From assembly GCA_046497275.1 (NCBI GenBank), contig JAWOFX010000079.1, positions 1,842-33,841 on the forward strand: a DNA stretch of 32,000 nucleotides. The letters are read 5' to 3'. Position numbers and translations under genes: made by a program. This stretch comes from Promethearchaeia archaeon. GTDB taxonomy: Archaea > Asgardarchaeota > Lokiarchaeia > Sigyniarchaeales > SOKP01. Under the pieces are notes generated by a model. That model had not been told where the DNA came from. It saw only the letters and a program-made list of their open reading frames with translations, and did no database searches. Of the stretch, positions 17,335 to 21,163 are shown piece by piece (positions within the stretch are counted from its first letter, which is position 1; each line of letters starts with the position of its first letter).

Positions 17335-17788
17335 TCTTATAACTCCGTAATTTTTAATTTTAAAAATTATTGAAAATTATTGATTAGAATTCTTAATATT
17401 TTACGCTTGATCAAATAAGTTCCTATTTAACCAAGAAAGTATTTTAATTATTTAGATTCTTAGCAAATAAATATTTTTCAATACAATTAATAATATTAAT
17501 TAAATTAGAATTTTCTCTGAAATTATTTTAAAAATGATTTAAAATAATATAAATTTCTTCACATGAAAGATTAAAGATTTTTAAATAACAAGAATAGATA
17601 TAATGGAAATAAATTTTTTAGTTCGCCTCTCCCAACAGTATTTTTTCCTTTATCTTACCTCAAATAAAATAGTGTATTTTTATCAATACTTAACCCCAAT
17701 ATAATTGAATTGTTCTCGTATTCATAGAATTAAGAAAATTTAGTGAGTGTTATTTTTAAATTTCAAAATTATATTAATAATCATAGAA

Positions 17789-18892
17789 ATGACTGAATTT
17801 CGAGTAAATAAATTTATTACTCTTAGATTAGAGGGAAAAGAAACAGTCATATATGTTAAGAAAGAGCGTTTTCGACAGTGCAAATATTTATTCTTAATTG
17901 ATCCAAGAAACACGGTCGATAACGATATTAATTCTATTGATGAAGCGGCGGAATCTTTTGAAAAGAAAATGGAGGGAGAGAATTTTACCTTGGATGAATT
18001 AGGACTTACTTCTGAGGATGTGTTTTGGGGACATTGCTCCAACCTCCAAGCGTGGGCGGAGAATGGGTATGATACACGGCTTATTCACTCTAATTTAGCA
18101 TTCCCGCTGCTGAGGGTGCTGGCAGAGAAAGGGGACCCGCAAGCGAGAAAAGTTTTTAAAGAAGAAATCGCGCGACGCTTCTTAGAAGGGTCAATAACTA
18201 CGAAAATTTTTCTTATGAATGAGGGTTTTCTTGATATCCTAACTATAGAAGAACTAGAAAGCATCATTCCGTCTAATATCATTTCTAAAATAAAATCTCT
18301 TAAGAATTTAATCGGAAAACGATTAAAAATGAAGAGTGACATAAGGGGAGTGGGACGAGAGTTAAATGCATACTCCTATGAGGAGGGTTATATCACAGGG
18401 ATGAAATTTAGCTGTAAGACATTGGACAAATTCCCCGAAATTTTGAGAAAATTTTCTGAGCTTAAGATGCTTGAGATGGCATTGAAAAAAATAGAAGTGA
18501 TTCCTGAATGGATTAATGAACTAAAGAAATTGAAAACGCTGAATTTAAGCTCTAATGCGATTAGAAAAATACCCGACTTGAGCCTGCCAGAGTTGGAAAC
18601 GCTTAGATTATCCTACAACCAACTGGAAACCATAGACTTTAGTGGGAGCGATTTGCCCATACTAATGGAACTATATCTAAGTGATAATAGAATACACACA
18701 ATTAAAGGATTAAAAAACCTAAAAAAACTTAAGATGCTAAGTATATGGCGAAATCAAATCAATGATCTTCCCAATGATTTATTGAAATTACCTAAATTAT
18801 TTGAAATAAGAATTAATAATTTAAATCCTATTAAAATTGACGAAGATAGTGTAGCTAAAGAATTAAAAAAAAAAGGAGTAGAGATTTATTAG
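17789..18892 (+). CDS. Leucine-rich repeat protein with a Lokiarchaeia-type N-terminal domain
   Basis: ATG at 17789 (MTEFRVNKFITLRLEGKETVIYV) is more plausible than the ORF-track start at 17747. Motifs FWGHCSNLQAW and LAFPLLRVL. C-terminal LxxLxLxxNxI repeats (LKTLNLSSNAI, LETLRLSYNQL, LMELYLSDNRI, LKMLSIWRNQI). Confidence 0.85.
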   Translation: MTEFRVNKFITLRLEGKETVIYVKKERFRQCKYLFLIDPRNTVDNDINSIDEAAESFEKKMEGENFTLDELGLTSEDVFWGHCSNLQAWAENGYDTRLIHSNLAFPLLRVLAEKGDPQARKVFKEEIARRFLEGSITTKIFLMNEGFLDILTIEELESIIPSNIISKIKSLKNLIGKRLKMKSDIRGVGRELNAYSYEEGYITGMKFSCKTLDKFPEILRKFSELKMLEMALKKIEVIPEWINELKKLKTLNLSSNAIRKIPDLSLPELETLRLSYNQLETIDFSGSDLPILMELYLSDNRIHTIKGLKNLKKLKMLSIWRNQINDLPNDLLKLPKLFEIRINNLNPIKIDEDSVAKELKKKGVEIY

Positions 18893-19141
18893 AAAATTAT
18901 TATTACAACGAAACTGATAGGTATGGATTTCCATCTTGACCAAGAGAAATTAGATAATTAATTTTTTTACTTGAATCTAATTGCTTTTTCTAAGAAATTA
19001 TAAAGTCAGTCAAAATACCTTTTAAAGTGAGTTGTTTTTCACTATTAATTTAAAATTTTTTATTGATATTTTTTATAATTCGTGAATTTAAAAAGTACTA
19101 TTTTTGGAGCATATTTTTTGGAGTGTTATTATAATGAAAAG

Positions 19142-19300
19142 GTGGCTCTCAGCCACAGAGACCTAAAGACAAGGTCAAAAATGAAATAGGGGGAGAAGAC
19201 AAATCATCTCAGCGTTAAGCCGAGACACTAAGTGTATACTCTACACTAACCAAAAGACAAAAATCCAGGGTGTGAACTGAGAGCCGTTTATATACGCCCT
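19142..19300. ncRNA. Candidate structured non-coding RNA / DNA element (orphan, family unassigned)
   Basis: About 44% GC (71/160 hand count over 19141-19300) within very AT-rich flanks. Five hairpins plus a long-range stem (19144-19157 with 19271-19285) and three copies of AAGACAA. No ORF. Confidence 0.55.
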
Positions 19301-19463
19301 ATTTATTTTTTTAAATTGGTATATCTATTTTATTAATATATGAAAATTTTTGCCTATCACTATTTTTATTAATATAATTATAAACTTGTTAGATATTTAT
19401 ATTTATTGAAAGATTATCTGGATTACCCTTTTTATAGAAATATATTACCTATTGACTAATAAA

Positions 19464-19862
19464 ATGAACGAATCGAATACAAAAAAAGAAGAAAAAGAAT
19501 TAAAAATTGATATTGGATGTGGTGTATTTATTATAATTGGATTTATCGCATCTTGGATTAATATGGTAATAATATATGATGCGCAGGGCACCAGTATTCA
19601 TCCCCAATTGAAAATATTCACGTATTTTACGATTATTTTCACGACGATTTTACCTACTGTTGGTATTGGGTTGATAAATAGGTTCTGGGGATATGCTTAT
19701 ATCTTGGGATTTGCGATGGCCGGTATTCCTTTTATCTTCATAGTTGATTTATTTATTGGGGCCTATACATTTGCCACTACAATGTTTATTTTTATTATTT
19801 TATGGATAATTTTTTGGAAAGCCTGGAGGAGCCTTAAGTCAATTAAGACAGTCCAAAACTGA
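19464..19862 (+). CDS. Hypothetical integral membrane protein (about 4 TM helices)
   Basis: Four hydrophobic stretches. ATG at 19464; the track start at 19452 is TTG. Confidence 0.8.
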   Translation: MNESNTKKEEKELKIDIGCGVFIIIGFIASWINMVIIYDAQGTSIHPQLKIFTYFTIIFTTILPTVGIGLINRFWGYAYILGFAMAGIPFIFIVDLFIGAYTFATTMFIFIILWIIFWKAWRSLKSIKTVQN

Positions 19863-20644: not shown

Positions 20645-21163
20645 ATGGTATTTAAAAAAGAACCAATGGATCGATATCGTTCATACGGATTCGAAATGAA
20701 GGATTGGGATAATTTAGACTGGAATAAAAATCGATTTCATGCGATATATTTTATAGATTATTTAACGGGCTCATTATTATTAGGGAATAAGTATTCAAAT
20801 CAATCAAAAATATGTGAAGCAAACGAAGATTTAATAAGTAGTTTTTTAAATGCCATAAATCTTTTTATTAATGAATTAAACCAAAATGATGATGATGAGG
20901 AAGAGATAAGAGAAATCAATTTCAAGGATTCTCGAATTCTCTATGAACGAAGAGGTCGATTGATGGTAATAGGAATATCGAAAAAAACTAATCTTGTTAT
21001 TGAGAGGACAATTCTTCAGAATTTACTCAATGATTTTTACGAGCGTTTCGAGTATAAGATAACACATTTTAATGGTGTGATAGATCAAGAAATTCTAGGC
21101 TACAAAAAGTTCTTAAATAACCTGGATCACTATATTTTTAGTTACGATGAATTTAATCTATAG
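20645..21163 (+). CDS. Stand-alone longin-like domain protein
   Basis: AIYFID..GSLL / DLISSFLNAINLFINEL / IREINFKDSRILYE / LMVIGIS / ILQNLLNDFYERF gives the beta-beta-alpha-beta-beta-beta-alpha-alpha order of longin folds seen in Asgard proteins. Confidence 0.7.
   Translation: MVFKKEPMDRYRSYGFEMKDWDNLDWNKNRFHAIYFIDYLTGSLLLGNKYSNQSKICEANEDLISSFLNAINLFINELNQNDDDEEEIREINFKDSRILYERRGRLMVIGISKKTNLVIERTILQNLLNDFYERFEYKITHFNGVIDQEILGYKKFLNNLDHYIFSYDEFNL

Follow-up and report, generated by a model that had tools for sequence, protein, structure and literature searches.

A previously undescribed structured RNA family with an invariant 21-nt strand in one family of Loki-type Asgard archaea

A short intergenic island in the genome of an Asgard archaeon raises the question of what an RNA made there might be, and which of its letters matter. 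In the window, the whole 32,000-nt stretch of DNA analyzed here, the heptamer AAGACAA occurs at 19166–19172, 19196–19202 and 19254–19260, and CAAAAAT, which reads AUUUUUG on the minus strand, at 19176–19182 and 19258–19264. Rereading the sequence confirmed all five positions, which an earlier note had given together with the proposal that the island is structured and might serve as a protein sponge with repeated sites or as an RNA bound by archaeal Sm proteins (SmAPs). The claim that every AAGACAA site lies in a predicted unpaired or loop position stands, save for the last A of copy 1, which falls within a stem: copy 1 forms the loop of hairpin P2, copy 2 lies in the unpaired tract M1, purine-rich on the plus and pyrimidine-rich on the minus strand, and copy 3 lies on the junction strand between P3 and P1 (coordinates of all elements are in the table). 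AAGACAA is found 340 times on one strand and 326 times on the other of the 3,853,201-base genome, and with lambda at 0.008 per 99 nt the Poisson probability of at least three copies in 99 nt is 8.6e-8, with ~0.01 windows expected; a genome-wide scan returned a single cluster of at least three copies within 99 nt in the 3.85-Mb genome, the one here. CAAAAAT is so common (1682 + 1714 occurrences in the genome, and 15 on the plus strand and 16 on the other within the 32-kb window) that its two copies alone carry no meaning.

The island is one of three copies in its genome of a ~135- to 160-nt structured RNA family that is previously undescribed. An exact 21-mer, M2, is present in three copies in this genome and occurs in 128 of the 154 genomes of the order, with 0 for a reversed-pattern control. 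By family, it is found in 126 of 134 genomes of the Loki-type Asgard family that carries the RNA (f1) and in 0 of 1, 1 of 14 and 0 of 4 genomes of the other families of its order (f2, f3 and f4, respectively), and the copies number 1 to 17 per genome. A covariance model (R1; 136 positions, 23 pairs) matched all 25 f1 genomes in a phylum sample, and a search of 125 genomes from other Asgard families gave no credible match. Matches outside f1 in two genomes (G238 and G192) lie inside protein-coding sequence and were rejected as false positives. In f3 the sole match, a full member, comes from G010, on a contig of 1.8 kb that is possibly mis-binned. The family is limited to, and near-universal in, one Loki-type Asgard family.

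Searches for a known relative gave little. At gathering thresholds Rfam 15 had no match in the 32-kb window, and with E values up to 10 the best were sau-63 (13.4 bits, cut-off 100) and SmY (11.4 bits, cut-off 39), the latter at 19071–19126, outside the island. When 10 canonical members were run against Rfam (cmscan), no common family emerged and neither strand was matched; ARAGORN found nothing. A literature search for the motif, in DNA and RNA letters and on both strands, and for small RNAs of Asgard archaea and Lokiarchaeia returned nothing relevant, its scope excluding subscription journals and preprint supplements. The viral collection IMG/VR holds four exact motif matches. Three of these score weakly against the model (19–25 bits): L239 and L240 are apparent chance matches in coding sequence, and L242 is the third. 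The fourth, from a contig of 225 kb, is a full-length, if weak, member of the family.

The structured island of the earlier note is a real structured RNA, as covariation in 101 aligned members demonstrates. All 23 modelled pairs, including each of the 11 pairs of outer P1, show double compensatory changes; 88.8% of cells are paired, compared with 31–43% when the partners are slid, and the covariation score of 0.496 (0.04–0.09 slid) was reached by 0 of 500 shuffles. All of these are counts on a realigned alignment that is biased to the structure: from the plain MAFFT alignment RNAalifold returned P1 alone, and P2 and P3 emerged once a structure line had been set manually and the members had been realigned to the model. 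On the same alignment, P2 covaries at 5/5 pairs with 92.7% of cells paired, and P3 at 6/6 pairs with 91.9%. As modelled, the RNA is a closed three-way junction in which P1 joins the ends, P2 and P3 project, and the junction strands are predicted to be pyrimidine-rich and unpaired.

Table. Elements of the small RNA gene and its syntenic neighbor (positions in the window)
Feature	Position	Strand	Basis or remark
Small RNA gene	19138..19295	minus	full-length covariance-model match (contig positions 20979–21136), 96 bits, E 7e-23, model positions 1–136
Conserved 3' flank N-CC-UUUU	19137..19143	minus	CC at +2/+3 conserved
Terminal helix P1, strand one, plus letters GGCTCTCAG	19144..19152	minus	pairs with 19277–19285
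Hairpin P2, GACCT / AGGTC	19160..19176	minus	covariation; 7-nt loop with AAGACAA copy 1
U-rich linker (minus)	19177..19186	minus	with 19176 makes the unconserved AUUUUUG
Variable tract M1	19187..19206	minus	paralogue variation and unpaired probability; holds AAGACAA copy 2
Optional extra hairpin	19207..19225	minus	minority of members: this lineage, L147, L063, L021–L023
Hairpin P3, AGTGTA / TACACT	19231..19247	minus	covariation
Invariant 21-mer M2, plus CCAAAAGACAAAAATCCAGGG, minus CCCUGGAUUUUUGUCUUUUGG	19250..19270	minus	AAGACAA copy 3 and the conserved AUUUUUG inside
Terminal helix P1, strand two, plus letters CTGAGAGCC	19277..19285	minus	pairs with 19144–19152
Clade-specific 4-TM protein, 132 aa, syntenic neighbor	19464..19862	plus	head-to-head with minus-strand RNA

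Conservation separates the flagged motifs from one another. In the aligned columns of the 101 members, AAGACAA copy 3 and the CAAAAAT at 19258–19264 are each kept in all 101, so that for these two the earlier note's test of conservation in homologues came out in its favor; AAGACAA copy 1 is kept in 3 members, copy 2 in 1, which is this window, and the CAAAAAT at 19176–19182 is identical in 11. The conserved unit, as the aligned sequences have it, is the 21-mer M2, which encloses copy 3 and whose core reads CUGGAUUUUUGUCUUUUGG on the minus strand. M2 columns are invariant, and M1 varies among paralogues while remaining always pyrimidine-rich; copies within one genome diverge widely outside the 21-mer, with compensatory changes present. 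The P2 loop sequence of the window is common to 3/101 members. On the minus strand M1 here ends in ...UUUGUCUUCUCCCCCUA, which departs from the canonical form CGCCCUCCUCCCCCUA, and its mean unpaired probability is 0.86 (66 members). On the 3' side of the minus strand, the N-CC-UUUU flank is a possible oligo-U terminator or 3' tail: T-runs of at least three lie within 12 nt of the minus 3' end in 83/101 members, and the tRNA genes of the same genome have T4–T6 downstream. A minus-strand RNA would be expected to start near AUGACUCC and to finish in CCUUUU.

Several patterns indicate that the minus strand is probably the RNA strand, and the earlier note's minus-strand reading is thereby strengthened. 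In the 80 best members, A.C or C.A cells of outer P1, P2 and P3 (G.U when read on the minus strand) number 45 versus 6 for G.U (outer P1 28:5, P2 11:0, P3 6:1). The asymmetry shrinks to 103:44 over all 101 members, and that of inner P1 is 26:14; kinship among the members means that the cells do not count as independent events. By consensus-structure energy the minus strand is preferred in 71/101 members and the plus in 28, and RNAalifold gives -60.0 (fold term -29.0) for the minus compared with -52.7 (fold term -23.8) for the plus. In genus g6, P2 is GACCC/AGGCC, with two mismatches in 5 bp on the plus strand and two wobbles on the minus; in the optional hairpin of the window, a plus A.C mismatch likewise corresponds to a minus G.U wobble. 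No positional TATA-box peak was found on either side, and by-eye promoter candidates occur on both strands. Contigs of the family were present in two metatranscriptome runs, where a unitig over P3 and M2 reached a depth of 310 versus 2.4–2.9 for the other contigs examined in that run, which hints at expression, the RNA-library contigs being unstranded, mostly from relatives and open to DNA carry-over. In these contigs, uncovered parts and the ends at 19158/19159 are uninterpretable.

The RNA is a stand-alone gene, independent of the genes around it. The neighborhood set comprised 105 copies, 93 with both flanks known; of the latter, 43 are divergent, 13 convergent and 18 + 19 tandem. Pfam annotation of the ORFs flanking 93/105 copies (173 ORFs) detected no transposase, recombinase or TnpB family, and the neighbors are functionally diverse. 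Diverse neighbors and all orientations among the 105 copies are what an independent transcription unit for a trans-acting sRNA would have. The distance to the next start codon is 170–590 nt, and the paralogues occupy synteny conserved across genera; their lineages adjoin tes and the 4-TM gene, HhH/NYN, Ldh_2, CN_hydrolase, SpoU, TFIIB and PadR. The best-scoring copy adjoins a Zn_ribbon_HMPTM + Radical_SAM gene in 12/29 plus-sense 5'-flank neighbors and also at L037, L056, L232 and L233; this radical-SAM gene (tes) lies downstream on the minus strand in most genera. At L036, L216, L228, L230 and L235 an HHH_5 protein is encoded on the 3' side, co-directional in the plus sense. In the window itself, the gene downstream on the minus strand, encoding an LRR protein, is convergent, and the RNA lies between this convergent gene and the divergent 4-TM gene. 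The 4-TM protein shows 45–61% identity to the neighbors at 8 other loci, is present in 24/25 f1 genomes and 0/125 genomes of other families, and matches only Promethearchaeota hypothetical proteins in the protein atlas. In 22 genomes its gene and the best RNA copy are 200–425 nt apart. The gene carries AT-rich boxes ~30 nt before the ATG, with no Shine-Dalgarno motif, which suggests its own promoter.

These data bear on several alternatives. Read from the plus strand, the RNA would have an invariant strand rich in A, ACCAAAAGACAAAAAUCCAGGG, and its other tract, GGGGGAGGAGGG, would be purine-rich and Shine-Dalgarno-like and could bind the 16S anti-Shine-Dalgarno end or a purine-binding protein. 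It might be a stand-alone molecule or a long 5' leader of the gene that follows in the same direction, the 4-TM gene here or an HhH/NYN gene at another paralogue. In its favor, runs of at least five T within 25 nt after P1 are commoner after the plus-sense end (53/101 members vs. 27/101 minus-sense), and the downstream 40 nt are T-rich; runs of at least four T within 12 nt do not discriminate (47 plus-sense vs. 43 minus-sense among 101 members). Inspection by eye also shows a weak consensus resembling TTTTAATA on the plus strand, ~27 nt ahead of P1, and suggests that on that strand alone P1 could be extended by a U-A and a G.U pair from its conserved GG/AU flanks. The 3' gene is also co-directional at two conserved loci, those of the 4-TM protein (22 genomes) and of the HHH_5 protein. 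However, the 45:6 wobble asymmetry in well-aligned helices and both energy comparisons favor the minus strand, the paralogues have no orientation bias once the syntenic loci are excluded, and the promoter-like boxes of the 4-TM gene speak against a leader; we consider a plus-strand RNA unlikely. A cis-acting, riboswitch-like leader with a ligand-sensing three-way junction is improbable; the downstream gene under its control would be the minus-strand tes, as in most genera, or else the plus-strand 4-TM gene. In its favor, aptamers typically have such an architecture, with P1 closing a junction whose unpaired strands are highly conserved. There are several copies per genome, the best-scoring copy is syntenic with the radical-SAM gene (12/29 scanned neighbors), and an oligo-U run immediately follows P1. 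Nonetheless, the RNA is retained in the window, where the gene after it is convergent, and the gap to the next start codon is long. The 93 copies are divergent, convergent or tandem (37 in the last class), with the radical-SAM and 4-TM loci divergent by construction, and no constant co-directional position upstream of related genes was found. In addition, one junction strand varies between paralogues, making it an unlikely ligand pocket.

The remaining alternatives concern the repeats within the island and the copies across the genome. A multi-site sponge, in which the three UUGUCUU/AAGACAA and two AUUUUUG sites of this copy would act jointly, draws on the triple motif being the sole such cluster in the genome with its copies in predicted unpaired or loop positions. 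This proposal of the earlier note found no support: of the three AAGACAA copies one is conserved, as is one of the AUUUUUG pair, AAGACAA copy 2 is a divergence, in this genome alone, of a tract that is normally GGAGGGCG-type and that the close relative L147 keeps in canonical form, and the other two family copies in the same genome lack the triplication. The triplication is real and improbable by chance in this genome, yet lineage-specific, and a sponge is very improbable. A mobile element or its guide RNA (a MITE, an IS110 bridge RNA or a TnpB/IscB omega RNA) would fit the high copy number, up to 17 per genome, the resemblance of P1 to terminal inverted repeats and the common flanking sequence of some copies in G035 and G041. 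Against it stand the divergence of intragenomic copies outside the 21-mer, with compensatory changes where near-identical copies would be expected of such elements, the conserved synteny of paralogues, the absence of transposase, recombinase and TnpB matches from the 173 flanking ORFs, where an adjacent recombinase or nuclease would be expected, and the weakness of the IMG/VR matches, leaving this origin scarcely credible. A C/D-box guide sRNA (boxes RUGAUGA and CUGA) or an H/ACA one (ACA box with a pseudouridylation pocket and K-turn) was rejected, with no Rfam snoRNA or sRNA match and no conserved boxes visible by eye in the consensus of either strand.

The explanation that we favor, tentatively, is a trans-acting small RNA, most likely read from the minus strand, that combines a fixed protein-binding handle, possibly for SmAP, with a variable targeting tract. 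The invariant strand CCCUGGAUUUUUGUCUUUUGG together with P1 and P3 would form the fixed handle for a conserved RNA-binding protein, within which a SmAP/Lsm ring may clasp AUUUUUG. The variable C/U-rich M1 would pair with purine-rich, Shine-Dalgarno-like mRNA sites, and the RNA would regulate its target mRNAs as bacterial C-rich-seed sRNAs do. Canonical M1 resembles the anti-Shine-Dalgarno end of 16S rRNA, which in this genome is ...GGAUCACCUCCU; in front of 2192 long ORFs, positions -12 to -8 are enriched in G-rich, Shine-Dalgarno-like motifs, and M1 is complementary to these GGAGG-type sequences, a generic complementarity. For M2, a search of the genome for a complementary partner yielded only scattered, low-complexity 12-mers (13 same sense, 12 complementary).

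As to the protein, the earlier note's AUUUUUG between stems is borne out for the complement of 19258–19264, which lies in an invariant, helix-flanked junction strand, and not for the other tract. On the minus strand GGAUUUUUGUC is situated between P1 and P3, is invariant in 101/101 members, and has the form of a single-stranded, helix-flanked RAU4-6GR-type site as in the Sm class. A weak local hairpin is predicted at this site (mean unpaired probability 0.50), and since AUUUUUG is common at this base composition the resemblance is a likeness and not statistical evidence. The genome has 4 matches to LSM-domain proteins, three of them strong, and LSM-domain genes are found in 150/151 genomes across the phylum, with at least four matches in 36/56 f1 genomes versus 2/95 others. 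Among these, no clade-specific SmAP paralogue was found: the extra match is a 137-aa LSM-like protein in 145/151 Asgard genomes and therefore no co-restricted partner. A SmAP/Lsm ring is possibly the partner of the invariant strand and the leading candidate for it.

Asgard archaea are the prokaryotes most closely related to eukaryotes. Their non-coding RNAs are very little known, and here one is kept in nearly every genome of a Loki-type family as several ancient paralogues. Its 21-nt strand is more strictly conserved than most genes for proteins, which makes a central role in these cells probable. Should the SmAP site be genuine, an archaeal Sm ring from the lineage ancestral to Sm snRNPs would have a defined RNA as its natural partner, and the role of Sm proteins before the spliceosome would become directly testable. 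A true Sm-class RNP in Loki-type Asgards, in which a SmAP ring would sit on the AUUUUUG strand and the variable pyrimidine tract would act as guide to purine-rich RNA, is a doubtful proposition at present; if it holds, Sm-site guide snRNPs such as U7 would have a counterpart in prokaryotes, one that might bear on the origin of Sm snRNPs in the archaeal ancestor of eukaryotes. Even with no Sm link, Lokiarchaeia genomes can be annotated with the covariance model of the family, and the RNA is a candidate regulator at the post-transcriptional level.

Comparison with known systems places the family near several of them. Like the eukaryotic Sm-class RNAs U1, U2, U4, U5 and U7, it has A-U5-G in a single strand between helices, and like U7 snRNA it combines this with a pyrimidine-rich, antisense-like tract in one small RNA. 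The variant Sm site of U7, AAUUUGUCUAG, has UUUGUCU in common with the invariant core described here. For the Sm site in general, the consensus is AAUUUUUGG (PMC5587771). Unlike Sm-class RNAs, to which it has no sequence or model similarity (Rfam cmscan, both strands), the family has its site in a closed three-way junction rather than ahead of a 3'-terminal hairpin, is multi-copy and confined to one archaeal family, and has no splicing or histone-processing context, Sm-ring binding being putative. An extended, sequence-specific archaeal Sm-protein site of ~19 nt is the Sulfolobus SmAP2 motif GGAUGGAUAUUAGGAAAUG, which shows that SmAPs can read beyond oligo-U (PMC5587771). The motif begins with GGAU, as does the core here, but it otherwise differs in sequence and is found in crenarchaeal mRNAs (coding regions and 3' UTRs) and not in a structured sRNA. 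Three-way-junction riboswitch aptamers share the P1-closed junction with conserved unpaired strands and the several copies per genome; the family differs in having no consistent downstream gene or orientation, in the variability of one strand and in being kept beside a convergent downstream gene. C-rich-seed trans-acting sRNAs include bacterial RsaE/RoxS. Mycobacterial 6C is another (PMC6486639). With these and with Hfq/SmAP-associated sRNAs the family shares a stand-alone intergenic gene, unpaired U-rich sites, a terminal oligo-U and an unpaired C-rich tract complementary to Shine-Dalgarno-like GGAGG, whereas its 21-nt invariant strand far exceeds a generic U-rich site and its ancient paralogues each have a C/U-rich variant of their own.

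The island, a copy of a structured small RNA lying between two ORFs, has a G+C content of 0.33, compared with about 0.21-0.23 in its flanks, and folds better than shuffled sequence on both strands (z -3.0 for plus, the window's forward strand, and -3.5 for minus). Rfam gave no match in the 32-kb window at gathering thresholds and only noise at E up to 10, and a tRNA search found none at the island. One such sub-threshold cmscan match, to nematode SmY RNA (11.4 bits, cut-off 39, E 8.6), rests on ACUAUUUUUGGAG, an Sm-site-like plus-strand string immediately upstream of the island; this is most likely a chance resemblance in AT-rich spacer. Within the island's own genome, a DNA search found 22-28 nt of it repeated exactly on two other contigs. 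A line-up of loci revealed a shared plan, in plus letters: one strand of the terminal helix P1 (AAAGGnGACTCCTGCC), hairpin P2 (GACCT-loop-AGGTC), an A-rich linker, the variable tract M1, purine-rich with canonical form TAGGGGGAGGAGGGCGAAAT, hairpin P3 (AGTGTA-loop-TACACT), the invariant 21-mer M2 and the second P1 strand (GGCAGGAGTC), 3' of which lie AT and T-rich sequence. In some members, the window copy and loci L147, L063 and L021-L023 among them, M1 and P3 are separated by an extra hairpin.

The island belongs to a genuine structured RNA family, as the earlier note's prediction of structure implied. A covariance model built from 117 non-identical members, picked out of 141 on length and P1 score, detects the RNA at three places in the own genome. 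When 101 members were re-aligned to the model, an alignment that is fitted to the proposed structure and so biased in its favour, 23/23 pairs showed compensatory double changes, 88.8% of cells were paired (31-43% with slid partners), and the covariation score was 0.496 (0.04-0.09 slid), values attained by 0/500 shuffles. RNAalifold, run on a plain MAFFT alignment, had already recovered the nine pairs of outer P1, every one with compensatory changes.

Coordinates of the features discussed (window positions unless a locus or contig is named)
Feature	Position	Strand	Remarks
Island	19138-19295		Window copy, 96 bits
AAGACAA copy 1	19166-19172	+	P2 loop
CAAAAAT	19176-19182	+	AUUUUUG on minus
AAGACAA copy 2	19196-19202	+	M1
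M2	19250-19270	+	21-mer CCAAAAGACAAAAATCCAGGG
AAGACAA copy 3	19254-19260	+	M2
CAAAAAT	19258-19264	+	AUUUUUG on minus
SmY-like match	19071-19126	+	Sub-threshold
LRR-protein ORF	17747-18892	+	381 aa; LRR_4, LRR_8; flanks island
Small ORF	19452-19862	+	Flanks island
Four-helix membrane protein	19464-19862	+	Within small ORF; 132 aa; single-copy; no Pfam family
HHH_5 protein gene	L216:16-2364	-	Zc3h12a-like NYN ribonuclease domain added
137-aa LSM-like protein	L195:1477-1887 = G000:C102:26109-26519	+	Own genome

The family is concentrated in one clade. Three exact copies of the 21-mer are present in the own genome and, with at most two mismatches allowed, it turns up in 128/154 genomes of the order, at 1 to 17 copies per genome; the reversed pattern matched in none of the 154. 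By GTDB family the counts are 126/134 genomes in f1, the Loki-type family carrying the RNA, 0/1 in f2, 1/14 in f3 and 0/4 in f4. In a species collection the exact 21-mer lies in at least 120 stretches, and among the matches listed these are overwhelmingly Promethearchaeota/Promethearchaeia MAGs, with a few titles naming other Asgard or clearly mis-binned sources. Across a phylum-wide sample the covariance model finds the RNA in 25/25 f1 genomes and in 2/125 genomes of 26 other families; those two matches, both inside protein-coding sequence, are false positives. Rfam 15 is without a model for the family, and searches of the openly readable literature found nothing relevant on the motif in either strand or on small or non-coding RNAs of Asgard archaea or Lokiarchaeia. 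What the window contains is one member of a small RNA family that is clade-wide, multi-copy and strongly covarying; in its variable tract this copy has diverged somewhat.

That divergence bears on the motifs that had drawn attention to the island, three AAGACAA and two CAAAAAT, whose positions were confirmed by reading the sequence. AAGACAA is rare (340 + 326 occurrences in the 3.85-Mb genome), and the cluster of at least three in 99 nt is the only one genome-wide, with a Poisson expectation of about 0.01 windows; the triplication itself is real. CAAAAAT is common, so its two copies carry no weight. Conservation divides the motifs: the third AAGACAA and the CAAAAAT starting at 19258 lie in the invariant strand and are present in 101/101 members, and the remaining copies are not conserved. 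Copy 1 is a P2-loop variant common to 3/101, the CAAAAAT at 19176 occurs in 11/101, and copy 2 is unique to the window copy (1/101), standing where canonical GGAGGGCGAA belongs; L147, the closest relative, shares the unusual P1 and the extra hairpin of the window copy yet retains GGAGGGCGAA. Thus the triplication is a quirk of the window copy and no property of the RNA, and the proposal of a protein sponge with repeated sites fails on these counts.

Because the helices are identical in either strand reading, wobble asymmetry was used as the strand test. Over all 101 members, A.C or C.A on plus, which is G.U on minus, fills 103 cells, compared with 44 for G.U. In the 80 best-scoring members the respective counts are 28 and 5 in outer P1, 11 and 0 in P2, 6 and 1 in P3, and 26 and 14 in the poorly aligned inner P1. 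A telling single case is genus g6, with P2 = GACCC/AGGCC; at locus L050 two C.A in P1 give way to a continuous 14-bp helix when read on minus, and an A.C in the window's extra hairpin likewise becomes G.U. By consensus-structure energy, 71 members fold better on minus and 28 on plus, and RNAalifold gives -60.0 for minus versus -52.7 for plus, minus being better in both the folding and the covariation term. Whole-sequence MFE favors minus by 87 to 12, a measure biased by G+U content. Runs of at least five T within 25 nt speak against minus (plus-sense end 53/101, minus-sense 27/101); runs of at least four within 12 nt do not separate the strands (47 vs 43), and the 13 tRNA genes found in the own genome have only T4-T6 downstream. 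There is no positional TATA peak on either side of the RNA. Two RNA-library runs contain family sequence as unstranded contigs, which speak for presence only; one unitig across P3 and M2 has a depth of 310, compared with 2.4-2.9 for the other contigs examined in that run. Collectively, the RNA is probably the minus strand, as the earlier note had guessed, with the longer T-runs as the dissenting evidence.

None of 105 copies overlaps a long ORF. The 93 with both flanks known lie between 43 divergent, 13 convergent and 37 tandem gene pairs, the surplus of divergent cases being due to a single orthologous locus, at which the best-scoring copy is flanked by a Zn_ribbon_HMPTM + Radical_SAM (tes-like) gene and by the gene for a four-helix membrane protein of 125-140 aa. 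The tes-like gene is oriented as the minus strand, with its start 170-590 nt from the RNA; the membrane-protein gene and the minus-strand RNA stand head-to-head. In 22 genomes a distance of 200-425 nt separates the membrane-protein gene from an RNA copy, almost always the best-scoring one, and with this query the distribution of the protein matches that of the RNA (f1 24/25, other Asgard 0/125). AT-rich boxes precede the ATG of the gene by about 30 nt and a Shine-Dalgarno motif is absent, so the gene probably has its own promoter. Given the phyletic pattern common to both, the protein may be functionally linked to the RNA. In the own genome an LRR gene holds the tes-like slot of most other genera, indicating that the conserved locus is rearranged, and since this gene is convergent with the minus-strand RNA, the window RNA cannot be a leader. 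An LRR protein likewise adjoins an RNA copy at L234.

Other paralogue lineages keep different syntenic neighbors: an HHH_5 protein of 600-790 aa, Ldh_2, CN_hydrolase, a SpoU methylase, TFIIB, PadR and, on own contig C137, a cation-efflux gene. Such diverse neighbors are not what leaders of a single pathway would have. Nor are the copies mobile elements, since the paralogues are syntenic and a Pfam scan of the 173 ORFs flanking 93/105 copies matched no transposase, recombinase or TnpB family; the neighborhoods likewise give no support to an IS110 bridge-RNA-like reading of the window stretch. The copies are ancient, fixed paralogues of one stand-alone gene. In two genomes, G035 (L045-L048) and G041 (L031, L039, L041), groups of copies share tens of flanking bases, suggesting that some paralogues arose recently by segmental duplication, and L048 resembles a chimera of two paralogue types. 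The HHH_5 gene, 100-210 nt from an RNA copy, marks a second conserved locus (L216, L036, L206, L212, L228, L230, L235), with an 86-91-aa ORF on the other side in L036, L216, L228, L230 and L235 and none at L206 or L212. The HHH_5/NYN protein may be a nuclease that processes the RNA, or the association may be mere synteny.

Read on minus, the RNA reads 5' AU-GACUCCUGCC (P1) and continues through invariant CCCUGGAUUUUUGUCUUUUGG, the P3 hairpin, CUGAUUUCGCCCUCCUCCCCCUAUUUUAUUUU between P3 and P2, and the P2 hairpin to GGCAGGAGUC (P1), then N-CC-UUU(U). Its junction is pyrimidine-rich. Predicted mean unpaired probabilities over 66 members are 0.86 for the C/U-rich tract, 0.50 for the half-open invariant core and 0.04 for the closed P1. 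Mismatches in the 21-mer across genomes concentrate at the CCCUGG end, leaving CUGGAUUUUUGUCUUUU as the most conserved part. The C/U-rich tract varies among paralogue lineages (e.g., CCCUCCUCCCCC, CUUCUUUACUUCUCCC, UUACUCUUACCC), is always pyrimidine-rich and terminates in CCCU(A/U); CUUCUCC is present in all three copies of the own genome. The own 16S rRNA ends 3' in GGAUCACCUCCU, and GGAGG, GAGG and GGAG are enriched 8-16 nt upstream of the first ATG in 2192 long ORFs of that genome. Thus the tract is complementary to the organism's ribosome-binding sites, a generic fit that names no targets.

No partner for the invariant strand turned up elsewhere in the own genome, so that protein recognition or tertiary structure fits it better than RNA pairing. 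On minus it presents AUUUUUG flanked by two helices, in agreement with the Sm-site consensus AAUUUUUGG set out in PMC5587771, which also describes an archaeal SmAP able to read a specific 19-nt motif. Of the Sm-site idea in the earlier note, one Sm-like site survives, and the second AUUUUUG does not. Four LSM-domain genes occur in the own genome and LSM in 150/151 Asgard genomes, among which no LSM factor co-restricted with the RNA was found to point to SmAP. What looks like an additional LSM match in f1 proves to be a 137-aa protein of the whole phylum (145/151 Asgard genomes sampled), which scores above the Pfam cut-off for LSM mainly in f1; its N-terminal half-domain is LSM-like, its C-terminal extension is conserved, and it adjoins a roughly 220-aa ORF that by eye is P-loop NTPase-like. 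SmAP is the likeliest candidate for a handle protein, though less likely than not.

Where RNAs couple a constant protein handle with a variable recognition element, the layout is of this kind: an invariant strand next to helices, plus an unpaired tract that varies. The invariant strand and its adjoining helices would then be the protein-bound handle and the C/U-rich tract the variable targeting element, and we tentatively propose that the family is a trans-acting small RNA of this constant-handle, variable-recognition type.
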